This document shows positions 13,201 to 46,391 of a stretch of 49,325 nt of DNA, one piece after another. The translations under genes were made by a program, and so were the position numbers. This stretch comes from Trichomonas gallinae (Eukaryota). Below the pieces are notes generated by a model. It saw only the letters and a list, made by a program, of their open reading frames with translations, was not told the origin of the DNA and did no database searches. The stretch is taken from contig MRSU01000049.1 in NCBI GenBank assembly GCA_008369845.1, positions 1 through 49,325 on the forward strand. Direction: 5' to 3'. The number at the start of each line of letters is the position of its first letter. Positions within the stretch are counted from its first letter, which is position 1.

Positions 13201-16200
13201 TAGGGATTAATATAATTACAGGAATGCCAATTTCTTATAACGAACAATTTTTCATTCAAATCGGTCATTTCGAAGAAGTAAGAATCGACTGTGAAGTGCA
13301 ATGCTTCATTCCTCAATTAAAATTCACTCTACCGAGGAGCTGCGATGATCCAACCATGGCAACAGTCAACACGAAGAAAATCTCTAAAAAGCCGAGCGGG
13401 CAAATTCCGCCGATTCAAGATCTGGCTGTTGTAGAAAACGAATTAGTTTACCAGCAATTGCAAAGCACTCCATTGGTAGGCTCTGTTAGACGCAAACGCA
13501 AAGAAGAGCACAAGAAGGATTATGATGGCTTTATTCTCTCCAAGTATGATATGGATCTCGGCAAAATTGTTTTCGGGCAAAAACGCGAATTCCATTTGAA
13601 AGCGAAAGCAATTTCACCTTTCCCTATAACCTTTTCACTAAACACATCATCATTATCTGGAACAGGATTCACAATTGAAACAACTTCATTCAACAATGTC
13701 CCACCAGATACAGACATTGACATTCCTGTTGTCTTTAACATCCAGAAGAGAACAAACAACTGTTTAGGTGAAGTTGAGTTTCCAATTCCTTTCGTTATGT
13801 CAACAGATTTCGCATTAATCGTTTACATCAAAGCCAATCTCGTCATGCCAACTATCAACTTATCACAGCAACACTTCGACTTCGGAAATGTTGTCGTTGG
13901 ACAAACATTGATTTTAAGTCTGCAGCTGCAAAACATGAATGAAGTTCCATGCGAATATAAATTCGGAGAAGCAGAATATACAAATGTTTTACAGAGAAAC
14001 ATGTCACAAGGTAGTATATCTCCTTACACAGCGAATCCATCAAGCGGCATTTTACCGCCTTCTTCTTTTATAAATGTTGAAATCGCTTTCGCGCCTAAAC
14101 AAGAGAAAAACTTTTCGATGCAATTTCCTATCGAAATCAAACACAACACTAAGCCATTATATGTCACACTCAAAGGCAACGGAATTCAGCTGAAGATTAT
14201 CTTCGATCCTCCATCAATTAAGATGCCGCCAATGATTCCGTTCAGTGAGCCAGCGACTACTACAGTAAAACTGAAAAATCCAACACAGTATCCAATAGAA
14301 GTCATGGCGAACCAATTCGACTTGCAATTGTTGATAGATCAATTAGAAGCTAAACAGATGCAAGAAGAGAAAGAGAAGAGCAAGAAACTCGACGAAAGCA
14401 TCAAAATGACTCCTAGCCAGGAAAACTTTAATCCACTAAATAATGAAGAAATAATGTTCACTAACCAGACAATTTCGAGATTCTCTATTTGCGTCATTGT
14501 AAACGGAATTTCGGGCAGCGGCAGAACAACTGTTTCCAAAGCAATTGCTAGTTATCTCGACGTCCCAGTCTTAAGTCTGAAAGAGCTGTGGGCAAACTTG
14601 GTTGCTAGCGACAACAAGAACGCCACGGACTACATCAACATAATCAAAGACAAAATAAGTCAGCAAGAATTTTACGACGGTTTTGTCGTTGACGGTTTAG
14701 ATGGACTTCCAGAGGCAAGCGAGACAGACTCGTTTTTACAGCATTGCTTGAAACAGAAGAACGCGTGGGAAGAAGTCTTCAACAACCCGCTCCAAGTTTA
14801 TAATCATAATAATCTGACAGCGTCAGAACTTGCTTTAAGTTATTTACTTGGGGCTCTTGAAGGCCACTACGTATTCCAAGTTGCTCTGAAGGCCACAAAC
14901 GAGCAGATGAACGAAAGAAAAGAAAGACAGGCAATAGAGGACGCAAAGAGACAAGAAGAAGAAGCAATAAAAGAGAAAGAAATGTTGTTCCAAATCACAG
15001 AAGAAGATTACGCGAAATTATCGCCTGAAGAACAGGCAGAAGTCGACAAGAAGAGATCTGAGCACAGAAGAAGACTGTTAAGAGGCATTTTGGCAACAAT
15101 CAAAGACCAAGAAGGCGAAGGTGGCGAAGGAAAGAAGAAATCGAAGCACAAACACCGCTCGAAGAAAGAAGACGGCGAAAAATCTGACGCAAAAGATTCG
15201 TCAAGATCTAGATCATCAAAGCATCACAGATCGAAGAAAGAGAAGGAAGATAAAGAAGAGCCACCGCCACCACCTCCTGTAGCCGAAGAGAAGCCAAAAG
15301 AAACAAAGAGAAAGAAAGGTTTGCAGCTGGATCCACTAGATTATTCGATTGCAAACTTTATGTTCACTTTGGGCTCAATTTCAGCGAAAATCAGAGACAC
15401 ACCAAATATAACAGTTATAGATCCTTTAGCTGTAATAGGAATGGAGTCGAAAGACATTTTGCCCAAAGTTGTTGAAGAAATTCCTCAACCACAGACAACT
15501 TCACAAGAAACATTAACAAAAGACAAAACACAATCGAGGGAATTGTTAAAACAAGAGGAAGAAGAAAAGAAAGAAGAACAAGAAGAGGAAGAAAAGAAGG
15601 AAGAAGAAATCATTTTCGCTCCACATATTACACAAGTCAACACAATTGTTATCGACATCAACAACGACAATCCAGAGAACATCAACGAAGAAGCAAGAAG
15701 ATTCATTCCACAACCAAATGGACTCAAGAACAGAATTTTCGCTTCTCAAATTCCAGAGCAGAGACTTATCATGCCTGACCAGCAGAACTACAAGCGCGCA
15801 ACATTATTCCAGATGCCAGAGCACGTTTTCATTCAGCTGGAGCAAACAGACAACGAGAAAATGATACAATGGTTGGATTCAAGGCCATCAACAGTTGCTT
15901 CAAATACAGGAGGAAGAAAGAGCAGAGCGAACAAGAACAAACGCGAACCAAGTGTAATAGACGATCTAGATACATCCAAAAACACTCCAAGATGGATAAT
16001 TGGACCAAATGCTGAGAAAGAATTGACTTTAATCTTCGAGCCAATGTTTGTCGGAACTTACAACGATAACATTATTTTCTCTTTGACAAACGGCATGGCA
16101 GACAACTTTAAATTACATATTTCAGGAGAATGCTACAACCCAGAGTTCGACAGGAATCCGAAGACGATGTTTTCCAAAGTCATGCAGAGATTGGACAAAG

Positions 16201-19200
16201 GAACTGATGGTACTTTCTTGCTGGAAACAAGCGAATACAATTTCGGTCCACTTCTTGTGTCTAAAGGTGATAAAGGAAATTCAAAATCTAATCCAAACGC
16301 TCCTTCTCCTTACAGAGGCATCGCAAACATCGTGAATACTTCTCAGTTCCCAATAGAATTCACTGCTTTTGTCACAGATTTAGTCGGACATAATGGATTT
16401 AGTCTCGAAAATAATAATTTCATTGTCGAAAAAGGACAAACATATCAGTTCCCGTTCAAATTCAATGCCGCGAATGCTGAAGTCTTCAAGTCACAAATCA
16501 AACTGTTCGCGCAAGACAATCCTGAGCCATTTGCTTTCAACGTATCAGCAGAAGGCTGCCTTCCTTGCATCGAGCCATCAACGACAAACTTAGACTTCGA
16601 GAAATTATTGTTGAATCAAACGAGGACTCTCAAAGTCGAATTAAAGAACACAGGTCTTATTCCTGCCGCTTGGTCTTTCAAGAACATTCAGTCATTAGAC
16701 AAGAACTTCACATTAAATGCTACGGAAGGAATAATTAACCCAAAGTCAACATTCGTTATGACAGCAATGTTCACATCAACAAAGGCCACTGTTATCAAGA
16801 AATCATTGATTTTGGAGGTTTCTAACAAAGAGAAAACAAAAGCATTCTCTTCTTATAATATTAATTTCCAGGCAGAAGCTTTTGAAATTAACGTGGACTT
16901 CCAGTTCCCTAAGGGCATGGATTGCTTAGATTTCGGCGCTTTGAAGGTTTCTCAGCCAAAGACATTGAGCTGCCAATTAACGAACAAAGGCAAATACCAA
17001 GGAAACTTCAAAGTCCAGTTCACTAATCCTAAGATACAGCCACACTTCCAGATCACGCCAATGGAAGGCCCAATTCCTCCAGGAAAGACACCATCGAATA
17101 TTTCGTTCACTTTCATGTGCAGCAAAGTCCAGAAATTCGCGAACATGAAAGGAATCCAAATTTTGCTGAGCGATGCCACAACAGGCTCCAAGACAGACAC
17201 GCTGCCTATTTCATTCAACGCAGCAACAATGTACAGCCAGTTCAAGATCGAGCCACAGAAGAAAATCGATTTTGGTCCTGTTACTGTTTTGAACACAGAG
17301 ACAAAGCAAATTACACTGACGAATACTGGCGTTTTCCCATTCGATTTCGATATAACTCCTAAAGCAGAGAAACCACCTGAAAACGAAACAGAGAAATCAT
17401 CATCTAAAATGGGTAAAAACGCAAAGGCAGCGAAAGCTCCTCCACCTAAGAACAAAGGAAAGAAGCCGAACGAAAAAGCTTTATCCTTTGGCCAATTTTC
17501 TGTTTCTCCATCAAATGGATCTGTTGCTCCAGGTGCTTCTGTAACCATCGAAGTAGAGTTCAGTCCGCAGATTCCTGGCAATTTCACATCTGTCGCCGTT
17601 TTCAATATAACTGACGCTCCACAAAACGCTGGAAAAGTCAACTTCACTTTAACTGGCTCCAGTCACATTCCTGGCATCGAGTGCTCGCATTTCGAGAAAA
17701 TTCTTCCTGGCCTTGCTCTTGCTTTGTCATTCGACAGACCTAAAATCACAAGCACGACATTTATAGAAGACGAACAAACTTTGGTTTTCAATCCAATCGT
17801 TGTCGGAATGAAATCAAAAGTCACTGCAAAAATCATCAACACTCAGCCAATTCCTTGCACAGTTGATTTAGGCGTTAAACCAAAAGCTAAAGTATCTGGC
17901 CAGTTCCCATTCGACATCAGCGAAAAATGCATTAATCTCAGTGGAAACTCTGAGGCTTCATTCGAAATAACTTTCTCTCCGAATGGAGTAGATAAGTTTT
18001 TGGGATTATTTGAGGCAGCTGTCAAGAATGGAACAGATCCAGCAACCAAAGCTCTGAAGTTCTCAGTAGAAGGCGTAGGCTCATTGCCACAAATTTCTCC
18101 TGTCGGACTCGAAAAAACAGGAAAGAATTCAAGCCTTTACACACTAAATATGGGCAAAACACTTGTTGGATTTTCTCGACAAAAGTCGATTGTCGTCAAA
18201 AACGATGGCGTCATCACAACCAAGCTCCAGATTTCTGCCAAGCCATCACCAGACTTCGAGTTGGTTGGCATTGACGCTGGAACTACTTATTCCATTGATC
18301 CAAACAGAATCATTGATCTTCCTATTTTATTCTCTCCATCTAAGACGAGAAAATGCCAGTTCGAAGTCACTGTTAACTTGGTTGACAATCCTAAAGGCTC
18401 TTTGAACTTCGTCGTCAACGCTGAAGGCTTCAGCGAAGACATAGTTTTGGAAGGAGTTAGAGGCGAAGACGAACTGGTTATGCCTGACACTGTCGTTGGC
18501 AGACAGAACTCAATTGTTTTCACAATGAAGAATGTTTCGCCGGCGGACATACGATTCCAGTGGCAGTCTCATCCTGATTTCACATTTGCTCCTTCTGTTG
18601 GTCATCTAAGACTCGGCAAATCCAAGGATATAACGATTTCTTACTTCTCAGATAAACCAGTCAAACATGTTGGCACTAAAATCAATTGCACGTGGAACAG
18701 AATCACGATGACAAACGCAAACTCTCCTGACTGGGATGATACAATGAAAGTCGTCAAATACATCACTAAAGCACAACTCGAAGCAATGAATCCTCCTCAG
18801 GAAGAAGAGCCTCCTAAAGATGCGAAACTCAAGAACTCGAAGCGTCAATCCAATTCAAGAGGATCAGTCAGAAACTCACACGTTGACATCAAAGCTGCAA
18901 CAGCTCCTAAAGAGCCACCGAAAGAATCAAAACTCATTGATGATGGTGACACTTTCGTAAGAGTTGTCGAAGTTAAACCAGAGCCAGAACACACAATACA
19001 AACAAATATCAAGACTAATTCGATGGCTGTCAGAGTCTTCGCTATTTCAGACTCAATCAAATACACAATAGACACAACTGAAGTCAACTTCAGCCCAACA
19101 ATGATGTTCGAGACGAGATCATCGGAAGTCAAGATTACAAATCCAACAACAATCAGATTCGATTACTCATGGAGAATCGCTGAGTTTAAGTCTTTGAGAA

Positions 19201-19784
19201 GCGAATATGTTTCATCTCATGGATATCCACTCAAAGTTACTCCACACACTGGCTTCATTGAGCCAGGAGGATCTACTGTTTTCTCGATCACTTTCGCTCC
19301 AATGGAAGTCGACGATTTCACTGCGAACTTAGTTTGCGACATTCCATTCATACAGACTCCACCACCATCAGTGAGAGTCACTGGTTTGTCAAGGAGGCCT
19401 CTCTGCCACTTCAATGTACAGCTTTCAGATTATCTCACAAGAAGACATCCTGACTATACATACAAACTTCCTAATGATGTAAAAGTCATTGAAATATTTG
19501 CAAAGAAAGTTGGCGCTAAAGCTATGTACAGATTCGAAGTAATCAACCCAACTTCATCACCATACGAAGTTACTTTCTCAAGAGTTGACAACGGAGAACC
19601 TCTCTCATCCAAAGTCAACTGCGAAACACCGAACGCATTATTATCGAGTGGAAAGCGATTTTCAGCTGCTTTCTCATTCGTCCCAGATTCCCACAAGACG
19701 ATCGAGAGTCTCTGGGAATTCAAGATAGGCGGACATGATGGCGTCGTTACAATTCTAGTCGTCGGGCGCATCATGCCACAATAA
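10296..19784 (+). CDS. HYDIN: Hydin-like axonemal central-pair protein (tandem ASH/PapD-like Ig domains plus adenylate-kinase-like insert)
   Basis: Many repeats of the type '(F/L)DFG.V......L.N.G..P..F....P..G.I.P'. Central IVNGISGSGRTT P-loop-like segment, K/E-rich coiled coil, and Hydin-like C-terminal RPLCHF...SDY...INPT...LWEF. First ATG is 10296 (the ORF track starts at TTG 10242); initiator TCACT at 10265. Confidence 0.82.
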   Translation: MNEIRIEPSCITFPNTYISAVSQYTLTIYNDGNETLNLLWRRYSSKEEEKIALDKIDQTDSTERQEKVEELQYISEIFRVDLSPIEIWPHSSKQVLVKYQPELAQPYCETAYLYSEKFEERIPVQFNGLGLPPDAIFNVSAVNIGHVVLDSILDYKIVLQNVGQVDVDFNYSSDVPKTFTFSPSSGHIPIGGSMEIIATFTANFVGSFNEEFEFKIKGAIKNFPRVNFYGRVVGPSYTINTKAIAFGDVSFGFIHTKTFEIENKSDIPFDYTFVLEYNGEFSGREFAITPISETIGKYGKQTVKIEFIPTKIQKYNLKMHMNIARFGQGLVSIPISANCICPEISLSHPVVDLGNVFIGYQYTGSVTLVDNTEFPAKFEYVDINDASKLQADIEIVKHNGQIDQRSKTDFVFKFTPRQLGPLNIIQYINILGSVEKPLTFCIKAVGIGPAISLNQQQINWGSIPVLKKSTQKLILSNNGKIVANFKAMIECDQNVFTLATPKGIILPNESFTAEINAYLDDNTEFKGKLIFEFENLSPITVPLRAKGVGTAVSADIPMDTIDFGYIYANQQITKTITFTNKGRKPQEIRFTLTKPRLDTDDKNCFSFKVIPDSEVIEKNESAEFTIVMNCTRPINFSMNMQVNSSQGRQREELFSPLVKGTFVKPIVNFSSQMLEFKHLHDIQKEKEYLENTNQKTPSPALLTDEEKTLVITNNSKLPLTLNLDCPEPFSCSLNHFTLQPKESKDCVVTFSTAFKTDFSCETISKKLSITLDNLPQKFNVNLKGIIVFPNIEFNPSGTVLFGSMLKNTEQTKDIILKNPTELPATFEWELMPASNDQSVDMSKIFDIYPIRSTIPAGGTDTMHFSFFAMNDQGANINYEARAICKVEGGPEYSIPLYGGSADITYTIEPLQMNFGKKSYLTPITSSINFSNTCEVPLKFAVRVPKACKFNQISFTPCEGTLDPHQTIQLGINIITGMPISYNEQFFIQIGHFEEVRIDCEVQCFIPQLKFTLPRSCDDPTMATVNTKKISKKPSGQIPPIQDLAVVENELVYQQLQSTPLVGSVRRKRKEEHKKDYDGFILSKYDMDLGKIVFGQKREFHLKAKAISPFPITFSLNTSSLSGTGFTIETTSFNNVPPDTDIDIPVVFNIQKRTNNCLGEVEFPIPFVMSTDFALIVYIKANLVMPTINLSQQHFDFGNVVVGQTLILSLQLQNMNEVPCEYKFGEAEYTNVLQRNMSQGSISPYTANPSSGILPPSSFINVEIAFAPKQEKNFSMQFPIEIKHNTKPLYVTLKGNGIQLKIIFDPPSIKMPPMIPFSEPATTTVKLKNPTQYPIEVMANQFDLQLLIDQLEAKQMQEEKEKSKKLDESIKMTPSQENFNPLNNEEIMFTNQTISRFSICVIVNGISGSGRTTVSKAIASYLDVPVLSLKELWANLVASDNKNATDYINIIKDKISQQEFYDGFVVDGLDGLPEASETDSFLQHCLKQKNAWEEVFNNPLQVYNHNNLTASELALSYLLGALEGHYVFQVALKATNEQMNERKERQAIEDAKRQEEEAIKEKEMLFQITEEDYAKLSPEEQAEVDKKRSEHRRRLLRGILATIKDQEGEGGEGKKKSKHKHRSKKEDGEKSDAKDSSRSRSSKHHRSKKEKEDKEEPPPPPPVAEEKPKETKRKKGLQLDPLDYSIANFMFTLGSISAKIRDTPNITVIDPLAVIGMESKDILPKVVEEIPQPQTTSQETLTKDKTQSRELLKQEEEEKKEEQEEEEKKEEEIIFAPHITQVNTIVIDINNDNPENINEEARRFIPQPNGLKNRIFASQIPEQRLIMPDQQNYKRATLFQMPEHVFIQLEQTDNEKMIQWLDSRPSTVASNTGGRKSRANKNKREPSVIDDLDTSKNTPRWIIGPNAEKELTLIFEPMFVGTYNDNIIFSLTNGMADNFKLHISGECYNPEFDRNPKTMFSKVMQRLDKGTDGTFLLETSEYNFGPLLVSKGDKGNSKSNPNAPSPYRGIANIVNTSQFPIEFTAFVTDLVGHNGFSLENNNFIVEKGQTYQFPFKFNAANAEVFKSQIKLFAQDNPEPFAFNVSAEGCLPCIEPSTTNLDFEKLLLNQTRTLKVELKNTGLIPAAWSFKNIQSLDKNFTLNATEGIINPKSTFVMTAMFTSTKATVIKKSLILEVSNKEKTKAFSSYNINFQAEAFEINVDFQFPKGMDCLDFGALKVSQPKTLSCQLTNKGKYQGNFKVQFTNPKIQPHFQITPMEGPIPPGKTPSNISFTFMCSKVQKFANMKGIQILLSDATTGSKTDTLPISFNAATMYSQFKIEPQKKIDFGPVTVLNTETKQITLTNTGVFPFDFDITPKAEKPPENETEKSSSKMGKNAKAAKAPPPKNKGKKPNEKALSFGQFSVSPSNGSVAPGASVTIEVEFSPQIPGNFTSVAVFNITDAPQNAGKVNFTLTGSSHIPGIECSHFEKILPGLALALSFDRPKITSTTFIEDEQTLVFNPIVVGMKSKVTAKIINTQPIPCTVDLGVKPKAKVSGQFPFDISEKCINLSGNSEASFEITFSPNGVDKFLGLFEAAVKNGTDPATKALKFSVEGVGSLPQISPVGLEKTGKNSSLYTLNMGKTLVGFSRQKSIVVKNDGVITTKLQISAKPSPDFELVGIDAGTTYSIDPNRIIDLPILFSPSKTRKCQFEVTVNLVDNPKGSLNFVVNAEGFSEDIVLEGVRGEDELVMPDTVVGRQNSIVFTMKNVSPADIRFQWQSHPDFTFAPSVGHLRLGKSKDITISYFSDKPVKHVGTKINCTWNRITMTNANSPDWDDTMKVVKYITKAQLEAMNPPQEEEPPKDAKLKNSKRQSNSRGSVRNSHVDIKAATAPKEPPKESKLIDDGDTFVRVVEVKPEPEHTIQTNIKTNSMAVRVFAISDSIKYTIDTTEVNFSPTMMFETRSSEVKITNPTTIRFDYSWRIAEFKSLRSEYVSSHGYPLKVTPHTGFIEPGGSTVFSITFAPMEVDDFTANLVCDIPFIQTPPPSVRVTGLSRRPLCHFNVQLSDYLTRRHPDYTYKLPNDVKVIEIFAKKVGAKAMYRFEVINPTSSPYEVTFSRVDNGEPLSSKVNCETPNALLSSGKRFSAAFSFVPDSHKTIESLWEFKIGGHDGVVTILVVGRIMPQ

Positions 19785-30257: not shown

Positions 30258-31142
30258 TTAGTATCCATAGATGCGCTTTGATCTGTGATCGCCATACGAA
30301 ACGAATCCTGGAGCAGCTGGGTCATACTCAATGCCACCATTCTTGTTGCCTACAACGAAGTGCATGGATGTTCTTGAATTTCCGCATTCAAGAATTTCTT
30401 TCTCATTACCATTGCAACCAGCATAACGGCCGCCCCATCTATATGTCCTGGCACCAGCAATTGGCTTGATTGCATCCCAGCTGAGAATATAACAATCAGC
30501 TCTCATCCAACCATTGGCAATGGCCTGGTTATATCTGGCATTGCAACCATCGATAGAGTTGACGCCACCGCACCAGCAAAGACTCATGAAACCGCAGCCC
30601 CATCTTCTGATGTTGGAATTGAATCTTGAATCTCCTTGTCTGATGACTTGACCTGGCTGTGGATGTGGCTGTGGTTGTGGGGATGGACCTGATCCACCAG
30701 TCAAAGCAACATAATCGGCGCAGACCCAGCCCTGCGGGATTCTATACCAGTTTCCGTTGATGTTTTGGATAACAATCTTTGTTCCTTGCCAGAGCCCTCC
30801 AACTATGCCATAGTTTGTGCCTGGGCCAGAACGGATATATACACCATTGGTCGTTCCAGTGATGACCGCGTTAACACGCACAAACTCGGCAAAAGCATAA
30901 CCAGATCTTCCATTAACTATAACTGACCACCAATCCCCACTTCTTCCCGTGACAGTAAATTGTGTCCTATCAGGGATGGCAGTCACTATGCTAGCAGATG
31001 TTGAAGGCTGAGAACGAATGTTAATTCCGTTATTAGATGCAACATATCCTGTTCCCTGCGCATTTGACTCCACTGGATGTCTATAAGACGTTCTTCCACG
31101 GTAGTGCCTACAGCTTGAAGCTGCAAACAATAAGCTGAGCAT
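30258..31142 (-). CDS. Secreted protein with two bacterial SH3b domains and a C-terminal papain-fold (DUF261/C39-like) domain; putative cell-wall hydrolase, copy 1
   Basis: Short hydrophobic leader MLSLLFAASSC. SH3b motifs INIRSQPSTSASIV...GDWWSV..NGRSGY and YIRSGPGTNYGIV...NWY...GWV. P/Q linker, then RQGD...WGCGFMSL...HFVVG...YDP. First ATG at 31142. Confidence 0.85.
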   Translation of the reverse strand: MLSLLFAASSCRHYRGRTSYRHPVESNAQGTGYVASNNGINIRSQPSTSASIVTAIPDRTQFTVTGRSGDWWSVIVNGRSGYAFAEFVRVNAVITGTTNGVYIRSGPGTNYGIVGGLWQGTKIVIQNINGNWYRIPQGWVCADYVALTGGSGPSPQPQPHPQPGQVIRQGDSRFNSNIRRWGCGFMSLCWCGGVNSIDGCNARYNQAIANGWMRADCYILSWDAIKPIAGARTYRWGGRYAGCNGNEKEILECGNSRTSMHFVVGNKNGGIEYDPAAPGFVSYGDHRSKRIYGY

Positions 31143-31368
31143 TTTTATAAATTTGTCATGACAAAATTCCCTGAATTTGCGCAACATTCAATTTTCTTAA
31201 TCATCTTTTATCTATTATAGCAATTATAACAAAATGCAAAGTCCATTCATTTCTGATGTTTACATATGTGGCAACTTTTTATGCAAATGATTCTCTTTAT
31301 GGAATATATACGATAACTAGTAAATTGTCAAATTTGACACTTTTGAAATCGACGTTATTTCATTAATA

Positions 31369-31960
31369 ATGGAACCACAGGCATGCTATAGAAACAACAC
31401 TAAAAATAGGAATTCAAAATTTGTCGACCGAAACAAAAAATGAATAAGAAGAGTTTCAACTCGCTTTCTGGTATTGCTATAAGAAGTGAGATCTCTACCA
31501 TATAAAACAACGGTTCGCAAAAAAAATCGAATTATTTTGAAATCGCAAAGTACATCATGTTTAACATGAATATCAAGACATAAGATTAATTCCATCGCAT
31601 TTACAATAACCAGATATACATATGCTAAGTACTTATTTGGGAGCTGCATCACTTTTTTCATGTTTTGATATTCACTCTATGAATATATCAGTAAATTGAT
31701 AATTCCAGCTGAGCTGCATGCTAATTAAAATACTTAATCTCAGTCTACTCAATATCTAAGCAAATTTGGAATCAAATTCTATAGAAGTGTCTCAATTCTG
31801 TTTCTCTTGGATAACATAGATTACTTAATTGCATGGAAAAAGGGTTCAAATGTCATTGATCAAGAATTAATGTAAATATTGTAATTAATCGAGATGATTA
31901 ACAAATACATATTTTCATCATTGCAAAGATCTTCTCTCATTACATGCATTTCTCCATTAA
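31369..31960 (+). pseudogene. Probable decayed ankyrin-repeat gene
   Basis: Initiator TCATT (31360) then ATG 31369. Fragments in shifting frames interrupted by stops: CYKK*DLYHIK, NYFEIAKYI, NNQIYIC*VLI, LKYLISV, LIAWKKG. Confidence 0.35.
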
Positions 31961-32101
31961 TTATTGTAATGATGAAACAACGCTCTAATTCAAAAATTTA
32001 AATTCAATATAACTAGAATTTTATTAGATACCATTTTATCTAGTAATATATGTTTCTCCAGATAATAAGAATTTAATAAAAACTATTTAAATATGTTAAA
32101 T

Positions 32102-32971
32102 TTAGTATCCATAGATGCGCTTTGATCTGTGATCGCCATATGATACGAATCCATCGTAAGCTGGGTCATACTCGATGCCATTGTTCTTGTTACCAACAAC
32201 GAAGTGCATAGAAGTTCTTGCATTTCCGCATTCAAGAATTTCTTTCTCATTACCATTGCAACCAGCATAGCGACCACCGTATCTGTATGTCCTAGCGCCA
32301 GCAATTGGCTTGATTGCATCCCAGCTGAGAATGTAGCAGTCAGCTCTCATCCAACCATTGGCAATAGCCTGGTTATATCTGGCATTGCATCCATCGATAG
32401 AGTTGACACCACCGCACCAGCAAAGGCTCATGAAACCGCAGCCCCATGTTCTAATGTTGGAATTGAATCTTGAATCTCCTTGTCTGATAACTCCACCGGA
32501 TGGAGATGGTGATGGACTTGAACCACCAGATAAAGCAATGAACTGTGCACTTACCCAACCCTGTGCAATTTGATACCAATCGCCGTTAATGTTTTGAATA
32601 ACAACAGCTGTTCCATCACTGAGTCCTGTGACTCTGCCATAGTTTGTGCCTGGTCCAGAACGAACGTTTAAGCCAACTCCTGTGCCTGTAACGACACCAT
32701 TGACGCGCATATATTCAGCGAAACAGTAACCAGATCTTCCGTTAGCGTTGACGGCCCACCAGTTACCGCTTCTGCCTGTGACTGTAACCTGGGCTCTGTT
32801 TGGAAGGGAAGTAATGATGCTGGATGTTATTGATGGTCCAGAGCGAACATTAATACCAATATCTGAAGCTACGTAGCCTGTGCCCTGGGCGTTGGCTTCT
32901 GCGGAACGATACGAGTATCTGTGACCACGATAATGTCTACTTAAAGCAGAACAAACAAATAAGCTGAACAT
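32102..32971 (-). CDS. Secreted protein with two bacterial SH3b domains and a C-terminal papain-fold (DUF261/C39-like) domain; putative cell-wall hydrolase, copy 2
   Basis: Tandem paralogue of 30258-31142: INVRSGPSITSSII, LNVRSGPGTNYGRV, S/P linker, and a nearly identical C-terminal Cys/His/Asp domain. Confidence 0.85.
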   Translation of the reverse strand: MFSLFVCSALSRHYRGHRYSYRSAEANAQGTGYVASDIGINVRSGPSITSSIITSLPNRAQVTVTGRSGNWWAVNANGRSGYCFAEYMRVNGVVTGTGVGLNVRSGPGTNYGRVTGLSDGTAVVIQNINGDWYQIAQGWVSAQFIALSGGSSPSPSPSGGVIRQGDSRFNSNIRTWGCGFMSLCWCGGVNSIDGCNARYNQAIANGWMRADCYILSWDAIKPIAGARTYRYGGRYAGCNGNEKEILECGNARTSMHFVVGNKNNGIEYDPAYDGFVSYGDHRSKRIYGY

Positions 32972-36531: not shown

Positions 36532-39500
36532 ATGTCTGACGACGAGTTTAGTGGATACTCAGACTCAGATGAGCCAAATGGCAACACTCGTCTCTCAGTA
36601 GACTTGACAGCCATCCCGCTCAACTTCACTGTTCTTGTAAATCCAAGCAAAATGAACCAAATTGGAGTCCAAAACAATTCCATCGTTTTACTGTCTAACG
36701 GTGGTAAAACCAAGGTACCAGCAATCGCATTAGCTGAACCAGGATGCGAAAGCGAAAGAATTGTTCTTCCATTTTCCATCCAACATGCATTAAATGTTGC
36801 ACAAGACAAGAAAATCTCTATTGAGTCAACATTCAACATCCCAGATGCATCAAGAGTTGAAATCGCTGTCCACACTGACCAAGTTGATCCTCAATTACAA
36901 AAAGTTTTAGGCGATTATTTCGGTTCACAGCTTTGTCCGGCCTCAGCCAAGTCTATTTTCAGACTCGATATCAACGGAAAGGGCATCTTCTGTGAAGTTA
37001 CACAAATTACGCCAGCTCCTTACGCGAAAATTACATCGAGAACACAAATCGAATGCTATCAGGCGCAGAAGACACAGTCAATCCCACGGCCATTCGATAG
37101 ACATCTCAGAGATCTCGATTTCCCAACACCAGTTACAAATCAGATCAACAAATTCATTTTGGCACCATTAGAGCGTCCAAATCTCCTCAAGAAGCTCGGC
37201 ATCGAGAAGTCTAACGGTGTTGTCGTTTTCGGAAAGAAAGGTGCAGGAAAATCTTCGGTTATCTCAGCAGTCTTACATGAATCAACAGTTCCAACATTCT
37301 ACATCAACACAGAGCTTTTGTTCACTATCGAGATTCCAAAGTCAATCGCATATCTTCAGCGCAAGTTTGCTGAAGCTATTCAAAATTCTCCTTCAGTTTT
37401 GGCTCTCGACAACGTTGAACTTCTTGCTCGCGATATCGCAACAGTCAAGAACGCACAAGAAAAGAAGCTTCTCGCTATTTTCAGGAATTGTTTCGAGAAT
37501 GCCTTAGAAAAGTCTTCTGTTTTGATTGTAGGAACAACAAGCGATCCAGCCAAATTCGATAAGGCATTACGTAAGTTAGGAGGCTTCGCATTTGCCATTG
37601 ATCTTAATTTGCCAGATGCAGAATTACGCGAGCAAATGTTCACAAGGTTCACAAGCGGTGCTAAGATCACAAAGAAGGCCCTAGGAACTGTTTCTGGAAC
37701 TCCATCTGACGGATTTACAGCTGCTCAAATCGAAAACGCCTGCAGACACGCTTTCTTCCAGCTTGCTCAGGCCAACGGATGGGCTACAGATCAAGACATG
37801 CTCAGAGCAGTCAAAGGTGGGAACTTACTCGTCAGGCATTTCCCATTCGGTCTTTCAGATCCACAGGAGGAGGAATCTCTCAATAAGCAGAAGATCCACA
37901 AGGTCAACGACGACGAGCAGTTCGCTAGAGCTCAACAGACACCACAAGACGCTCATTCAACTCATGGATTTACAGTTCAGGATACATTCTCACCAAAGAA
38001 GGAGGAAGACTTGGACAACGCATTCGGCATCAACGCTGGAGCAGATTATTCTGATCCATTCGCTGCCAAGAAGCCACAATCGACATTCACAGTCACAGTC
38101 AACCCACAAGAACCAAAGCAGCCATCAGCAGATCCATTCGGTGCTCCTCCAAAGCCATCCGGCGATGCATTCAGCTTAGAAGCAAGATTGGGTCTCTCAA
38201 ACGATCCATTTGGTGCTGCACCGGCTCCAAAGCAGCCATCAGCAGATCCATTTGGCGCACCACAAAAGCCAGCCAACGACCCATTCGGCGCTGCTCCAGC
38301 ACCAAAGCAACCATCAGCAGATCCATTCGGAGCTCCACAGCAGCCACCGGCAAACTCACAGCCATTCAACGACCCATTCGGCGCTCCACAGCAACAGATG
38401 CCTCCACAACAGCCTCCACAGCAGCAACAGCCACCGAAAGGACCGAATATGGATCAGTTCGATCCATTCGCACCAAAGACACCACAGCAGGCTCCACAGT
38501 CTCAGCCACAGCCAGTTGCAAACGATCCATTCGGCGCTCCACAACAACAGCAGCCTCCACAACAGCAACAGCCACCACAACAGCAGCCGAACCCATTTGG
38601 CCCACCACAGTCTGCCGCTGTTCCGATGTCTCAGCCACAGTCTGGACCATTCGGTCCACCACAGGCTGCACAGCAGCAGGCTACACAGAACAAGGACCCA
38701 TTCGCTCAGCAGCCACAGCCATTCCAGTCCGATCCATTTGGCGGAAAGCCAACACCGCCAGAGCCACAGCAACAGGCCCGCCAGCCAGGCTTCAACTCAG
38801 ATCCATTCGGCCAGTCGAATCAACAGCAGGAGCCATTCGGAGATCCTTTCCCACAGGGCCCATCATCACAGGCTCAGCAACAGCCACCAGCCCAGCCACA
38901 GCAGAACGATAACGACGACTACGACCCGAATGCTACTGGATTCGACATGTTCAGGAAGAAGAGCCAGATGGAAGTTTTCAAGCCAGCTAAGTCAGAGCAA
39001 CAGGATCCATTCGGTGCTCCAGCACAGCCACAAGCTGAGAAGCCACCATCCACAGAAATGTTCGCTGCCCCACCACAGCAACAACAGTCTCAGCCAGCTC
39101 CACAGCAGCCACCTCAACAACAACAGCAACCACAGCCATTCGACCAACAACCATTTGGTCAACAGGCTTTCGGCCAGCAGCAGCCACAACAACCACCACA
39201 ACAGCAGCCATTCGGTCAACAGGCTTTCGGCCAACAACAGCCACCTCAACAACAACAACCATTTGGACAACAAGCATTTGCCCAGCCACCACAGCAGCAA
39301 CAGCCACCTCAGCAACCACCTCAACAGCCACAACAACCACCACAGCAACAGCAGCCACAACAGAAGGCTCCATCAAAGGGTGGATTTGCAGAAGTGGACT
39401 TCGGCGATCCATTTGCTGGCGCCAAGTCATCACCAGCTCCAGCCCCAGCTCAACAGGCTGCTCCAGCACAGAAATCAGCTCCACAGCAAAAGCCACTCGT

Positions 39501-40866
39501 TGCTCCAAAGGGCGCTACAACCCAACAGAAGGATATGCTTGCTGGAGACAACAGTAATCCACAGAATCCATACATGGTGGCAGCCCAACTCATGCCAGTT
39601 GAACAGCCAAAGAAGGACAAGTTCGATCCATTCGGTGGACAGCCAAAGAAGGCAGACAACAATACATTTGCACCACAACAGCCAGCTCAGTCACCAAGTC
39701 CATTTGCTGCTCAATCAGCTGGCCCATTCGGCCAGAAATCTCAGACATCAGCTCCACAGCAGCAGGACGTCTTTGGACCGGCACCAACAGCCTCACCGCA
39801 ACCAGTCCAACAGACTCCAAGTACATTTGCCACACCTGGACAAAACGACATCTTCGGCGCTACACCAGCGGCACAGCCACAGCAACCACCACAACAGAAC
39901 TTCGCTCCTCAACAGCTACAGAACTTTGCTCCTCAGCAACAACAGCAGCCGCAGAACTTTGCTCCTCAACAGCCACAGCAACCACCACAGAACTTTGCTC
40001 CACAGCAACAACAGCAGCAGCCACCACAGAACTTTGCTCCACAGCAGCAGCAACAAGCGCCAGATCCATTCAGCGGACAAAATGTCATTCCACAACAAGC
40101 TCACAACGATGACCCATTCGGCGGCGCAGGAAGAAGTGCAGAGTACAACATGTTCCGCAGAGATGCACCAGCTGCACAGCCACAACAGGCACCGATGACA
40201 GCAAGTCCATTCGCCGCACCACCAGCTCAGCCAGCTGCCCAGCCACAGCCACAGAAGCCAGCTCCAGCCAAGCCAACATCAACAGGCGGCTATGCTGCAA
40301 TGGACTTCGGGGATCCATTCGGTGGCGCCAAGTCATCAACACCAAAACCAGCTCAACAGCCGCAGCAACAACCACAACAACAACAGCCACAGAACTTCAA
40401 CCAGGGTGGATTCAACCAGCCACAACAGAACAGCCCATTCGGCGGACCAAATCCAAACACACCACAAGGAATGTTCAACCAGCCTCAGGGCTACAACCAG
40501 GGCGGATTCAACCAGCCACAGCAACAATACGGATACAACCAAGGTTACAACCAAGGATATGGTGGTGGCTACAACCAGGGTTATGGAGGCTATCAACAGC
40601 CACAGCCAAGCGATCCATTCGCAGCAGCTGAACAAAACTACGGAAGACCACAGTATGGCGCTCAGCCAGGATATGGACAGGGTGGATACGGACAGCCGCA
40701 GGGTGGTTATGGTGGACATGCTCCATACGGTCAACAACAAGGTGGATATGGCGCTCCACCAGGTTATGGAGCTCCACAGCAGCTACCACAGCAACAACAG
40801 CAACAGAAGCAACCACAGCAGCCCGCAAAGAAGGATGTCTTCGCTGACTTCAACCCAATTAAGTAA
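36532..40866 (+). CDS. Cdc48/p97-derived protein: N domain, one degenerate AAA module and a long Q/P-rich DPF-repeat tail
   Basis: N-terminus aligns by eye to the p97 N domain (VLVNPSKMNQIG....IVLL...C....I). PLERPNLLKKLGI precedes Walker A GKKGAGKS; Walker B LALDN; DKALRKLGGF; LPDAELR. Low complexity after about residue 450. Confidence 0.85.
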   Translation: MSDDEFSGYSDSDEPNGNTRLSVDLTAIPLNFTVLVNPSKMNQIGVQNNSIVLLSNGGKTKVPAIALAEPGCESERIVLPFSIQHALNVAQDKKISIESTFNIPDASRVEIAVHTDQVDPQLQKVLGDYFGSQLCPASAKSIFRLDINGKGIFCEVTQITPAPYAKITSRTQIECYQAQKTQSIPRPFDRHLRDLDFPTPVTNQINKFILAPLERPNLLKKLGIEKSNGVVVFGKKGAGKSSVISAVLHESTVPTFYINTELLFTIEIPKSIAYLQRKFAEAIQNSPSVLALDNVELLARDIATVKNAQEKKLLAIFRNCFENALEKSSVLIVGTTSDPAKFDKALRKLGGFAFAIDLNLPDAELREQMFTRFTSGAKITKKALGTVSGTPSDGFTAAQIENACRHAFFQLAQANGWATDQDMLRAVKGGNLLVRHFPFGLSDPQEEESLNKQKIHKVNDDEQFARAQQTPQDAHSTHGFTVQDTFSPKKEEDLDNAFGINAGADYSDPFAAKKPQSTFTVTVNPQEPKQPSADPFGAPPKPSGDAFSLEARLGLSNDPFGAAPAPKQPSADPFGAPQKPANDPFGAAPAPKQPSADPFGAPQQPPANSQPFNDPFGAPQQQMPPQQPPQQQQPPKGPNMDQFDPFAPKTPQQAPQSQPQPVANDPFGAPQQQQPPQQQQPPQQQPNPFGPPQSAAVPMSQPQSGPFGPPQAAQQQATQNKDPFAQQPQPFQSDPFGGKPTPPEPQQQARQPGFNSDPFGQSNQQQEPFGDPFPQGPSSQAQQQPPAQPQQNDNDDYDPNATGFDMFRKKSQMEVFKPAKSEQQDPFGAPAQPQAEKPPSTEMFAAPPQQQQSQPAPQQPPQQQQQPQPFDQQPFGQQAFGQQQPQQPPQQQPFGQQAFGQQQPPQQQQPFGQQAFAQPPQQQQPPQQPPQQPQQPPQQQQPQQKAPSKGGFAEVDFGDPFAGAKSSPAPAPAQQAAPAQKSAPQQKPLVAPKGATTQQKDMLAGDNSNPQNPYMVAAQLMPVEQPKKDKFDPFGGQPKKADNNTFAPQQPAQSPSPFAAQSAGPFGQKSQTSAPQQQDVFGPAPTASPQPVQQTPSTFATPGQNDIFGATPAAQPQQPPQQNFAPQQLQNFAPQQQQQPQNFAPQQPQQPPQNFAPQQQQQQPPQNFAPQQQQQAPDPFSGQNVIPQQAHNDDPFGGAGRSAEYNMFRRDAPAAQPQQAPMTASPFAAPPAQPAAQPQPQKPAPAKPTSTGGYAAMDFGDPFGGAKSSTPKPAQQPQQQPQQQQPQNFNQGGFNQPQQNSPFGGPNPNTPQGMFNQPQGYNQGGFNQPQQQYGYNQGYNQGYGGGYNQGYGGYQQPQPSDPFAAAEQNYGRPQYGAQPGYGQGGYGQPQGGYGGHAPYGQQQGGYGAPPGYGAPQQLPQQQQQQKQPQQPAKKDVFADFNPIK
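38050..40850 (+). repeat. Coding low-complexity repeats (GATCCATTCGG = DPFG units, CAG/CAA/CCA tracts, QNFAPQ and GYNQ repeats)
   Basis: About 20 DPF-encoding units. A 75-bp-period duplication near 38200-38340. A near-identical block GGACTTCGG.GATCCATT...TGGCGCCAAGTCATCA at about 39396 and 40302. Confidence 0.9.
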
Positions 40867-41706
40867 ACAAAGCATAGCTTATCTTAACACAAATGATTCT
40901 ATTATTTTTTCATATATTCTGTCCGAGATAAATCTATAAATTGGACAGATTTTAGTGTGTTACATGTGTCAGATGGATTAGACAGTTGCTAAACCAATAA
41001 TTGTCGATATTACAGTATGGATAAAAACTTTCTCTAAATTTTAAGACTTTTATAATCTTTAATCCATACTTAATTTCTCGTAAACTATAGAAAAAGTTTA
41101 AAATTCGACTTTTGATACTAAGTTGCCAATGGTAACACTAGGTTTAGAATACAGCAAGATAATAGGAATGGATCTAGAGATGCGTTTTTTCTCTACAAAA
41201 TATTTCTTGACTGTAGATGATGCTATATTTTAAAGTTATTCATGATATAATGGCGTAAGATTGAAAATTATACGTGTTTTATAAGGAAATTTGGATATAA
41301 ACACTGTCGGAATTATAATTTAATAATGTTATTAGAAAGAATATTTCGCAATATTTGTATCAATTTATAGCGATCATTGTTGTCTGTTTGATGAAATTTT
41401 ACGATTATTTTGCATTCAATTTGATTATTTCCGGAAAACCTTGTAATTCTATTAAGTTATGAGTTGTGATAACTCCATGACCGTTGACGAATTGAGATGA
41501 ATAATTTATTGAATTATCGCAATAAAAAATATTACAGTACATAATATAATCTACAATTTTCATAATATTTCAAAATTTTATATAAAAAATTTTAAAATGA
41601 AAAATTACTAATAAATCATTTAAGTGAATAATTACTTTAAATTTCGAGTATAAAAAGTGACAATCGATCGTTGAAAACTTGACTAGGAAAAGTGCCAAAT
41701 AAAATC

Positions 41707-43511: not shown

Positions 43512-46391
43512 ATGGTTTTACCTTCTTATTTTACCATCCCATTGATAGCCTCAGTCCCAAACATGTGGATAATTCTTGCTAAATATCTATTCGAGCCGAC
43601 GTCCAAAGTCATATACATGAACTTCTCTAATCTTATCGTAATATTATTAAAACTAATATGTGAGTACTCATTTATTGCTTGCACACACTACTGGCTCTTA
43701 AACTTCTTAGTTACGAAACCAAAGAACTCAAAAGGAAAGATTTTTATCGATCTTTTATTTTACGGAATATATATTGAGATTTTCGGATTTTCTCTTTATG
43801 ATTTCGAGTTCTCCAGGAATAACTTACAGATCGCACTACCTTCTCTTTATTACGCTTATTTGGGTAGGTATAGATCATCGAGTCGTAATACATTCTCTGA
43901 GCCAATCTACAGAATACCAAATCCAGTTGGTTCCATGAAGACATCCAATTCTATTATAACAGATACAATCAAAGACTCTCCAACATTTTGGATTATCACT
44001 ATTTCAATCATGGTAGGATGGATTCTGGCACAGTTGTATCTGTTGTACAGGTATAGAGATATCATATTCAGCCATCTAAATTTGTTTTCTTACGAGGCTA
44101 GAAAAAGAGTCTTAATTTCGGATAATATCCATTTTGATTTGCTTGACAAACAGTTTCATCAGAGAAAATACAAAGATATACTATTAACAGTCATTCACAT
44201 ATTAGCTCTTGTCCATTTAATTTTCACATTTGATTTATATTTTGTCCCATCGAACCTGAAAATGACCAGATACTTAACATTACCATATTTAGATGCCATG
44301 CTTGTATCATTGTACCATTTTGAATCCAAGTTGCCCAATAGAACAAGACATGAATTGTTAAGTTTAACGAGATCTTACTTACCACCAGGCAGAATGTGGC
44401 TAGATAACAGGAAAGATCCCGTATATCCTCAAGTTCATGCAGATCCAATCACATATTGCGCATATAACAAGCAAGATCCAAAATGTGAAGGAGTTAAACC
44501 GGTTCCTGGAGAAAAGATGGTCAAACAACTCCCTAATGTTGTCTTATTGGTATACGAGAGTTTCACCCCTTCTTATTACCAAATTAATCCTGATTATATT
44601 ATTGAGCACACACACGCTTCAAAAGACGATGCAAAGAGAATATTGACCAACACAAGCTATTACCATCCGGATATAGCCCCGAATTTGCACAAATATGCAA
44701 GTTCTGGAATAACATTCAGCGGAATGTCATCATTAGGCATTCCTACAGCGTCAGGATGGCACTCATTGATGACAGGACTCGGACCTTCGCAGTCATTTAC
44801 AAATATTGTTGAAGGAGCAAAAATTCATTCAGATGATTTCCCTTCTAACCTTAGACATCGCGGCTATAGGTCATTTTTCATCAGTTCCGGCCTATTTAGC
44901 TTCGATGGAGCCAATCATTTCGTAGACAGAAAACCTGCAATTGAAGAAGCAAAGAATATCCTTCGTTGCAAGGACGGATTCGGCGATTTATACGATGAGG
45001 AGTCAATGAGACAGATGTTCCCCAAAAATGTTTATCCAAAACTAAAAGATTGTTCTGCATCAGAAGTCGAAAAACTTGCACGCGAACTTAGAAAGCAAAA
45101 ACTTGATTTACCAAAACCGTTTGATTACGCATTCTCTTACAGACCATCAGATGACAATGCCAAGCACCTAGGGATCGATCCAAAGACACTGACTGTTAAG
45201 ACATACTGGCAGTCAGATAGGATTACGTCCGCCGAAGTCATTTATCACTGGAAGCAACAACGTAATTTCTTGAATAAGAAGAACATCACGAAGCCAATCC
45301 TTGGTATACATTTGAGCATAGAAGGACACATTCCTTACAGCGAGAGAGATGATCACGGACTCTATGAAGAGACAAACAAGTTCGATCATCTTTTCGAAGG
45401 ATTTTCAGCGAGAGAAAAAACAAGAGCAAGGAACTTTATAAAAGTATCTAGAGTAACGGACAAGTACCAGATAGGATCAGTTCTGGACTGGCTAAAGAAA
45501 AATGACAACAACACGATCTTCATCATAACAGGAGACCACGGAACAAGAGACATACCTTTGCACGACGTTGAATCTAAAGTTTACGAAGATGTTGTTTTCT
45601 CAGGCGACTGCGTTCACAAATCCAGTGGATCTGACTCTTTCTTCGTTACAAGTGGCGCAATAGGTTATCTCGGTGATGATCCAGTCATCAAGCAGATGAT
45701 GCACCTCGATGAACTTGCTGGAAAGACTCTGAAAATACCAGCAGACCACAACGACTTAATCTACACAGTCGAGGAGTTGATCAGTGAACTTAATGGAACA
45801 GTGATGCCTCCAACACACAGAAGATCGAGGAACCTGATCAAGCTCACTAAAGAAATATCAGATATGCTAAAGACATCGAAACCAAAGAGGGTTTATGATC
45901 ACATAAATGAGATGAACTGGAGATCATATTCCACTGTTTCTTATATTACAGAATTCAGAGAAGGAGCAAACTTATTGAGAACGAATCCATCTGATCCTAA
46001 AGAAGCCCATCTTTACAATAATGCTAGTTATCCACTCTGCATGAAAGTAAAGGGTGAAAAAGATCAAGTTTTGGGAACAGAAGAATCTCAACAGTATTTC
46101 AAGAAGATGAAAAAGTTTATGCAAGTTGAAACATATTTGAATTACCACAACAGAATATTCAACTACGCATTTAGAGATACTTCATGCGTCGAAAAAATGA
46201 ATTGTGAGTTCCCTAAGCCAGATGAACTCAGATTCAACTACATTTTCATTTATGCACTTGCAATTCCTCCTGTTTTGATTATGCTCGCAGGTTCTCTAAT
46301 TGGAATTCTGATATCTGCATTGATGGCTGTTATTGGAATGTTCCACATTGAAAAAAGATCAATCGATGAAAATGTATTATGTGATTTATGA
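43512..46391 (+). CDS. Multi-pass membrane protein with an alkaline-phosphatase/sulfatase-fold domain (LtaS/phosphoglycerol/phosphoethanolamine transferase-like)
   Basis: About 5 N-terminal hydrophobic segments. PNVVLLVYESF (metal Glu), GIPTASGWHSLMTG (Thr nucleophile position), LRHRGYRSFF, GHIPY, NTIFIITGDHG; C-terminal TM helix. Confidence 0.82.
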   Translation: MVLPSYFTIPLIASVPNMWIILAKYLFEPTSKVIYMNFSNLIVILLKLICEYSFIACTHYWLLNFLVTKPKNSKGKIFIDLLFYGIYIEIFGFSLYDFEFSRNNLQIALPSLYYAYLGRYRSSSRNTFSEPIYRIPNPVGSMKTSNSIITDTIKDSPTFWIITISIMVGWILAQLYLLYRYRDIIFSHLNLFSYEARKRVLISDNIHFDLLDKQFHQRKYKDILLTVIHILALVHLIFTFDLYFVPSNLKMTRYLTLPYLDAMLVSLYHFESKLPNRTRHELLSLTRSYLPPGRMWLDNRKDPVYPQVHADPITYCAYNKQDPKCEGVKPVPGEKMVKQLPNVVLLVYESFTPSYYQINPDYIIEHTHASKDDAKRILTNTSYYHPDIAPNLHKYASSGITFSGMSSLGIPTASGWHSLMTGLGPSQSFTNIVEGAKIHSDDFPSNLRHRGYRSFFISSGLFSFDGANHFVDRKPAIEEAKNILRCKDGFGDLYDEESMRQMFPKNVYPKLKDCSASEVEKLARELRKQKLDLPKPFDYAFSYRPSDDNAKHLGIDPKTLTVKTYWQSDRITSAEVIYHWKQQRNFLNKKNITKPILGIHLSIEGHIPYSERDDHGLYEETNKFDHLFEGFSAREKTRARNFIKVSRVTDKYQIGSVLDWLKKNDNNTIFIITGDHGTRDIPLHDVESKVYEDVVFSGDCVHKSSGSDSFFVTSGAIGYLGDDPVIKQMMHLDELAGKTLKIPADHNDLIYTVEELISELNGTVMPPTHRRSRNLIKLTKEISDMLKTSKPKRVYDHINEMNWRSYSTVSYITEFREGANLLRTNPSDPKEAHLYNNASYPLCMKVKGEKDQVLGTEESQQYFKKMKKFMQVETYLNYHNRIFNYAFRDTSCVEKMNCEFPKPDELRFNYIFIYALAIPPVLIMLAGSLIGILISALMAVIGMFHIEKRSIDENVLCDL

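Follow-up and report, generated by a model that had tools for sequence, protein, structure and literature searches.

What is the function of two adjacent genes of Trichomonas gallinae that join bacterial-type SH3 (SH3b) domains to DUF261, a domain shared with spirochaetes and phages? The genes, termed A and B here, lie on contig MRSU01000049.1 (assembly GCA_008369845.1), whose 49,325 nucleotides form the window, that is, the whole stretch of DNA analysed. They probably represent a phage endolysin family that, after a single capture, was turned into a peptidoglycan peptidase for export, an activity that is predicted. It is likely that the parasite took over a phage wall-cutting enzyme and directs it against bacteria, because the phage relatives of DUF261 stand among genes of cell-lysis type and because wall-binding domains are fused to it in the parasite.

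Domain architecture, fold and catalytic residues

A sequence-only reading of the locus had described two adjacent genes, each with a leader, two SH3b domains and a third domain of about 129 amino acids (aa) carrying a Gln/Cys/His/Asp set. Both open reading frames (ORFs) were recovered with SH3_3 and DUF261 above the Pfam cut-off, and the quoted motifs are present, the residue set being Gln164, Cys178, His256 and Asp269 of the 289-aa gene A protein. Two SH3_3 (PF08239) stretches occur per protein (85.5 and 75.8 bits in Pfam). The model superposes on 2KT8 and 2KRS at root-mean-square deviation (rmsd) values of 1.0-1.4, in line with SH3b membership, and these domains resemble those of bacterial peptidoglycan hydrolases. 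DUF261 (PF03196) is matched at 33.5 and 32.1 bits in genes A and B, with a further score of 36.7 bits, against a gathering cut-off of 26.1, and positions 3-135 of the 137 in the profile are aligned. The C-terminal domain alone (30261-30647) scores 35.1 bits, and neither it nor either full protein matches NLPC_P60, CHAP or Peptidase_C39_2 in Pfam at E<=0.1. A Gly/Ser/Pro linker separates the SH3b pair from DUF261 in both.

The papain/C39-like fold that the earlier reading had suggested is also what the structural model predicts. Built from a 52-row alignment, the domain model reaches a predicted local distance difference test score (pLDDT) of 97.3; the full-length model has a predicted template-modelling score (pTM) of 0.49. 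A wide structural search found 208 of 48,161 chains reaching Z 2, and all 50 rows listed are papain-like, NlpC/P60 and CHAP structures being absent from those 50, which does not exclude such matches. The top match is PeiR (Z 8.1, rmsd 3.0, 113 aligned residues, 12% identity), followed by prostaphopain B (Z 8.0, rmsd 3.8, 114 aligned) and the C39 domain of PCAT1 (Z 7.8, rmsd 3.2, 109 aligned). Sequence and profile searches of the PDB returned SH3b matches or noise only. In the numbering of the domain model, Cys18 opens helix H18-26, His96 opens strand E96-100 and Asp109 follows E106-108. In papain, the Cys stands at the start of a helix, the His at the start of a strand and the Asp or Asn after the next strand. 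Both the modelled alpha+beta fold and the Cys/His/Asp topology thus agree with papain-like (clan CA) membership, and the topology would place Cys and His next to each other.

Membership in a particular papain-like family is a narrower matter. The profiles of Peptidase_C39 and C39_2 (PF03412, PF13529) matched 0/20 members at E<=1, and hhalign against C39_2, from a shallow 10-row alignment, gave a probability of 2.3% (P=0.021) over 41 columns around the Cys. In the Atlas, viral DUF261 clusters and a cluster in which 20% of members carry Peptidase_C39 match at 0.96-0.97. Viral wall enzymes with a papain/C39-like fold do exist, since PeiR, from a methanogen provirus, is described as a lytic enzyme of the C39 family (PMC6189367); what the substrate is does not follow from the fold by itself.

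Residue conservation was followed through 92 non-identical domains, 40 eukaryote-like and 52 prokaryotic. The eukaryote-like rows keep Cys in 36/40, His in 39/40 and Asp in 40/40. Prokaryotic rows keep Cys in 52/52, His in 52/52 (the His of row L059 is an alignment artefact) and Asp in 48/52, a conservation that is partly circular for the phage rows because most viral loci were found with His- or Cys-motif patterns.

Phage homologues in a lysis-cassette-like position

Two overlapping viral scans gave 14 and 26 loci, of which 23 were scored after repeats on the same contig and three near-duplicates had been set aside; 37 genes of at least 200 aa drawn from the same viral loci served as controls. 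Directly 3′ of DUF261, a membrane gene of 45-170 aa begins in 20/23 viral loci versus 6/37 controls (Fisher 7e-8), and a pair of genes that overlap out of frame and have N-terminal membrane helices lies downstream in 11/23 versus 0/37 (4e-6), p-values that are optimistic because the viral loci are related to each other. Phage DUF261 lies in a lysis-cassette-like setting, where the labels holin-like and spanin-like refer to size, helices and overlap rather than to family matches. The same test at other spirochaete genome loci found the membrane gene in 10/15 and the pair in 5/15. In most viral loci, tail genes are found upstream; upstream genes of two loci match the 'hemolysin' PHROG 937, one of them also XhlA, under its cut-off.

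An endolysin PHROG was found for none of 138 flanking ORFs, PHROGs contains no family for the DUF261 domain, and tblastn returned nothing from cultured GenBank phages, whether queried with the domain from the window or with a phage homologue. Three CheckV-complete phage genomes (G405, G406 and G407) were scanned across 276 ORFs of at least 110 aa; coverage was incomplete for shorter ORFs, for 32 overlapped ones and for long ones spanning either of the two cut points in each genome. Among the scanned ORFs of G406 and G407, no Pfam lysin domain besides DUF261 was found. The phage context supports wall hydrolysis as an independent line of evidence.

Two further features of these loci were noted. 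A reverse transcriptase gene (PHROG 1423), possibly of a diversity-generating retroelement, lies beside tail genes in L018 (3122-4408), and a metallophosphoesterase-like gene of 260-330 aa often lies 3′ of the lysis-like cassette (L007, L008, L011, L015-L018 and L020).

Spirochaete holders and BppB

The Borrelia DUF261 match cited in the first reading is real: 34 of 35 plasmid records found by tblastn belong to Borrelia or Borreliella, and the 30 listed rows are annotated as DUF261 (28), BppB (one) and DUF261/hypothetical (one). DUF261 is BppB on cp32-type plasmids, with a paralogue on lp54, and lies near ssb, bppC or dbpA; a placement beside the blyAB holin was rejected on account of these actual neighbours. 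Scanning 185,579 species genomes for the motif yielded three loci, all from spirochaetes, and PF03196 is matched in 20/401 Spirochaetota genomes (11 above cut-off) and 0/14 control genomes. Across the plasmid tblastn, the motif scan and the Spirochaetota and control genomes, the named prokaryotic holders are spirochaetes throughout, and we infer spirochaetes to be the hosts of the DUF261 phages. The words 'lysin', 'holin' and 'bpp' are absent from the text of the phiBB-1 paper (PMC11008901).

Some bacterial loci differ in arrangement. In Treponema (L022, 1448-4196; L023, 55-1979), DUF261 follows a conserved 180-aa gene and precedes a multi-pass membrane gene. Unlike typical bppB, a BppB-clade DUF261 in L053 (1173-2594 in reverse-strand coordinates) is flanked on one side by a holin-like membrane gene and on the other by two genes of membrane or lipoprotein-like type. 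Two small multi-plasmid spirochaete genomes (L072 and L073) encode longer DUF261 proteins (233-234 aa) with an N-terminal extension, upstream of a lipoprotein-like gene.

Origin and the eukaryote-like family

A tree of 91 domains over 139 columns (unrooted, L059 left out) places 40/40 eukaryote-like rows on one branch with support 100/99, among prokaryotic and phage homologues, in agreement with the bacterial or phage ancestry proposed earlier. Borrelia BppB forms a separate clade and is not the nearest relative of that branch. Prokaryotic DUF261 fusions were absent among proteins of 301-2000 aa, which held only five known eukaryote-like ones; this negative is weak, and proteins of 227-300 aa fell outside the profile search. 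Given single-domain phage forms and no prokaryotic fusion, it is simplest to suppose that the bare domain was captured a single time and joined to LysM or SH3b afterwards.

The 40 eukaryote-like rows comprise 37 that cover the C-terminal domain, hand-picked from the best 120 of 1201 matches, together with one fragment and the two window proteins. The T. vaginalis G3 members, the window and contig L006 are tied directly to eukaryotes, and the remaining rows are placed by clade and leader. Counted by eye, the modules before DUF261 in the 39 non-fragment rows are two SH3b domains in 23, one SH3b in seven, LysM in six, none in two and ankyrin in one, the last possibly a chimeric assembly. An N-terminal hydrophobic stretch is present in 33/39. 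Contig L006 carries a LysM form amid genes that look eukaryotic by eye. Four rows (P0027, P0030, P0042 and P0009) have Cys replaced by Ser (three) or His by Asp (one) and may be inactive binders. No RNA holder of DUF261 was listed.

T. vaginalis G3 has at least five members: A2FFA9, TVAG_145850, TVAG_060160, TVAG_034150 and TVAG_052420. A2FFA9 bears the database name 'NLP/P60 family protein, putative', likely a misannotation since its listed domains are SH3b and DUF261. TVAG_060160 is made as a protein: in the available tables of a lysosome study it appears in a lysosome-enriched list with five peptides in 3/3 OptiPrep isolations (PMC8717582 Table S3), and the T. vaginalis proteome table there enters the architecture 'DUF261; Bacterial SH3' without comment (PMC8717582).

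Proposed mechanism and points that weigh against it

The following sequence of events can be envisaged. A parabasalid ancestor would have acquired the bare domain on a single occasion from a phage or prophage whose host was probably a spirochaete, with binding modules added afterwards. In the present-day protein, the leader would send the product outside the cell or to the phagolysosome, where SH3b (LysM in some relatives) would dock the basic protein on the bacterial wall and the flexible linker would let the Cys-His-Asp domain reach its bond. Cys178, activated by His256 and Asp269 and with Gln164 as oxyanion hole, is predicted to attack an amide bond of the stem peptide or cross-bridge. The DUF261 protein may thus work beside the known NlpC/P60, GH19 and GH25 enzymes in killing or digesting bacteria.

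Several observations count against this proposal, in addition to the kinship of the viral loci, the circularity in the phage rows, the naming of holin- and spanin-like genes and the four substituted rows mentioned above. On the structural side, C39 domains, staphopain and PeiR are tied at Z 7.4-8.1, most structural matches are protein-cutting proteases, and Foldseek found no PDB match at E<=0.001, papain-like structures nevertheless leading its ranking. The Gln is conserved in 27/52 prokaryotic rows, and a C39-like Q-C-H protein is reported, in the accessible part of the source, to be a glycosidase (PMC13642728). In the phage loci, PHROGs named no holin or spanin at E<=1e-5. In G405, the tape measure is immediately followed by an NlpC/P60 gene of 128 aa, in a region that usually encodes tail-tip proteins. 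BppB-type loci lie outside lysis cassettes (membrane gene 2/9, overlapping pair 0/9), and the surroundings of the two Treponema copies are non-phage. Three phage rows form the sister of the eukaryote-like branch (97/91), a grouping marked as a long-branch join, and the tree is unrooted. In the available lists, TVAG_060160 is absent from the Percoll and bead lysosome preparations, the OptiPrep list is broad (2748 proteins), and no SignalP peptide is given for it (PMC8717582).

A bolder form of the proposal is conceivable, and we regard it as doubtful. In DUF261, spirochaete phages would possess an endolysin family that has gone unrecognised and is adapted to peptidoglycan of the ornithine type, with BppB the lysin of cp32/phiBB-1 prophages; after a single domestication, parabasalids would have joined this phage lysin to SH3b or LysM and would use it to control or eat the spirochaetes and other bacteria among which they live. 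The peptidoglycan of Borrelia contains ornithine with glycine, according to the portion available of one study (PMC12279116).

Alternative explanations

The most probable alternative is an active cysteine protease whose substrate is something other than peptidoglycan, for instance a bacterial surface protein or a lipoprotein tether, SH3b and LysM merely targeting it to the cell surface. The tie of staphopain and C39 leader peptidases with PeiR fits this idea, as does the location of BppB and the two Treponema copies outside lysis cassettes. Phage copies between holin-like and spanin-like genes, and complete genomes without another lysin in that place, speak against it, and we judge it unlikely, if a serious contender.

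The trichomonad proteins might instead be mainly wall binders, opsonin- or lectin-like and active in phagocytosis, with a weak or vestigial catalytic domain. Cys or His is lost in 4/40 eukaryote-like rows and one member (TVAG_060160) occurs in the lysosome-enriched fraction seen in the available tables, but all three of Cys, His and Asp are retained in the two window proteins and in 33 further rows. Moreover, between genes A and B the ratio of nonsynonymous to synonymous substitution rates (dN/dS) is 0.105 in the DUF261 domain, below the 0.24 of SH3b domain 2; as estimated from the two sequences, the DUF261 domain is under purifying selection. The binder explanation is accordingly a good deal less probable than a protease of another substrate.

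Archaeal pseudomurein of methanogens, the target of PeiR, is a still weaker candidate. PeiR is the top structural row by a mere 0.1 Z, whereas the structural rows are tied, the named prokaryotic holders are spirochaetes and the SH3b domains are like those of bacterial peptidoglycan hydrolases. We consider this target very improbable.

That A and B are further, or already described, NlpC/P60 genes is largely refuted, and its residual probability is small. Besides the name of A2FFA9, a match of the full-length model to T. vaginalis NlpC_A (6BIQ, 6BIM; E about 1e-8, template-modelling score (TM) 0.26-0.30, 10% identity) speaks for it. Against it, there is no PF00877 (C40) match, hhalign with a shallow NlpC/P60 alignment gives P=0.49, 6BIM and 6BIQ show no sequence match at E<=10, the motif is WGCG/AF rather than the DCSG type, and the third residue is Asp, not His. 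The separateness from NlpC/P60 claimed in the initial reading therefore holds. The four TVAG identifiers are also absent from the searched supplements of two NlpC papers (PMC6299479, PMC10461829), as are DUF261 and XP_001309331 from 9/10 supplement files of the former (PMC6299479).

Bacterial or phage contamination of the assembly, hinted at by a GC content of 0.46-0.47 in genes A and B versus 0.33-0.41 in their neighbours, is refuted by eukaryotic genes on both flanks (MLH1, DIM1, proteasome beta, Myb, BEACH and HYDIN-like in Pfam), homologues on T. vaginalis contigs of 26-40 Mb, the second eukaryote-like contig L006 and a GC content at third codon positions (GC3) of 0.39-0.40, equal to that of the HYDIN-like gene, and pieces similar to both genes and their spacer occur in one bird metagenome run. 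The genes are integrated in a eukaryotic genome, as had been asserted, and belong to one eukaryote-like clade. The intronless state, previously offered as an argument against contamination, carries no weight because neighbouring genes are single ORFs as well.

Organization of the locus

Genes A and B are both intact and are separated by a spacer of 959 bp (Table 1). Gene A shares 59% and 53% identity with two named T. vaginalis G3 homologues, and a kinase from the window shares a 90% cluster with one from T. vaginalis G3. The DUF261 halves of A and B have 91% DNA identity and a synonymous divergence (dS) of 0.34, whereas the SH3b halves have 68% identity and dS >1, with silent sites saturated in SH3b domain 1 and dS 1.12 in SH3b domain 2. 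Since the DUF261 halves are far more alike than the SH3b halves, the comparison suggests partial gene conversion, in which the catalytic halves would have been converted while the binding halves diverge. An antibacterial 'system' had been postulated for this pair. The two SH3b-DUF261 genes stand; the word is an overstatement, because they are two paralogues of a multigene family. Three other genes of the window are included in Table 1 as separate observations.

Table 1. Coordinates of genes A and B, their domains and three other genes of the window
Feature	Position	Strand	Description
Gene A	32102-32971	(-)	289 aa; leader-SH3b-SH3b-linker-DUF261; isoelectric point (pI) 9.2-9.5
Gene A leader	32888-32971	(-)	aa 1-28; short hydrophobic signal-like start, then basic Arg/His stretch; aa 11-27 disordered in full-length model
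Gene A SH3b domain 1	32705-32881	(-)	about aa 31-89
Gene A SH3b domain 2	32531-32698	(-)	about aa 92-147
Gene A DUF261 domain	32105-32491	(-)	papain-like domain
Gene A Cys178	32438-32440	(-)	
Gene A His256	32204-32206	(-)	
Gene A Asp269	32165-32167	(-)	
Gene B	30258-31142	(-)	294 aa; architecture of gene A, 78% identical to gene A; start taken at the ATG matching homologues, ORF open to 31187
Gene B leader	31059-31142	(-)	aa 1-28
Gene B SH3b domain 1	30876-31052	(-)	
Gene B SH3b domain 2	30702-30869	(-)	
Gene B DUF261 domain	30261-30647	(-)	Cys183, His261, Asp274; 95% identical to gene A domain
HYDIN/CFAP65-like gene	10296-19784	(+)	3162-aa protein of Ig repeats
AAA-domain gene	36532-40866	(+)	3′ third GC-rich (0.51-0.56) and strongly skewed, probably low-complexity repeat tail
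Alternative frames in AAA gene	38930-40198; 40292-40939		long and open
Sulfatase-domain gene	43512-46391	(+)	959-aa protein, possibly another bacterial-type gene

Significance

If the proposal is correct, DUF261 acquires a function and endolysins gain one more catalytic family, which would explain the release of spirochaete-type phages without a recognisable lysin. BppB becomes a candidate lytic enzyme of the prophage of the Lyme agent. For Trichomonas, the proteins would form a sixth, unlisted group in the antibacterial toolkit, with at least five members in T. vaginalis, and would bear on how trichomonads alter the mucosal microbiota. As an antibacterial lead, too, a small single-domain lysin with a possible preference for the walls of spirochaetes would be of use. 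The surprise is limited, laterally acquired SH3b wall enzymes being a known Trichomonas theme.

Comparison with known systems

Full-text literature, in which few subscription papers are covered, yielded nothing on DUF261, PF03196, TVAG_145850, TVAG_060160, TVAG_034150, TVAG_052420, A2FFA9 or XP_001309331. A 2025 paper on the Trichomonas toolkit distinguishes five groups (NlpC/P60, GH19, GH25, GH3 and Lcn972), and 'DUF' does not occur in its main text (PMC12612818). The available text of a T. tenax paper does not mention the DUF261 family (PMC11288935), and neither 'SH3' nor 'DUF' appears in the main text of a 2026 preprint on the L. jensenii secretome.

Among viral and bacterial proteins, PeiR of the methanogen provirus phi-mru (C39-like; PDB 8Z4H) resembles genes A and B in its papain/C39-like fold and in placing wall-binding repeats before a C-terminal peptidase, as far as the accessible description goes (PMC6189367). 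That viral lytic enzyme binds and cuts pseudomurein by way of PMBR repeats, has 12% identity to the DUF261 domain and scores level with staphopain and PCAT1. BppB, from the cp32 prophages of Borrelia, and its lp54 paralogue share PF03196, the same Cys/His/Asp and 26-34% identity, but consist of a single domain without a leader, form a separate clade and lie near ssb and bppC rather than blyAB. Fusions of Peptidase_C39_2 (PF13529) with SH3b in Firmicutes-like bacteria have an SH3b and C39-like domain and a similar Cys motif in common with genes A and B, which lack the Pfam match.

The closest parallels come from Trichomonas. According to the available text, GH19 class B muramidases likewise carry a signal peptide and two tandem SH3b domains before a laterally acquired wall enzyme, and GH19 relatives in other metamonads use LysM, as do some DUF261 relatives (PMC12612818). 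They are glycoside hydrolases, whereas genes A and B encode predicted peptidases. Nine NlpC/P60 genes with PF00877 are described from T. vaginalis in the accessible text, those of class A combining two SH3b domains with Cys-His-His (PMC6299479). Class A (NlpC_A1 and NlpC_A2; MEROPS C40) matches genes A and B in its leader, two SH3b domains before a papain-like cysteine domain, lateral origin and gene-family organization (PMC6299479). Genes A and B differ in having DUF261 instead of PF00877, Cys-His-Asp instead of Cys-His-His and no sequence match, and their relatives are found in spirochaetes and phages rather than in Firmicutes or Actinobacteria. By analogy, genes A and B most likely work as the SH3b-NlpC/P60 enzymes of Trichomonas do, from outside that family. 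Laterally acquired SH3b wall hydrolases in Trichomonas were already known; what is new is the case for DUF261 as an unrecognised phage endolysin.

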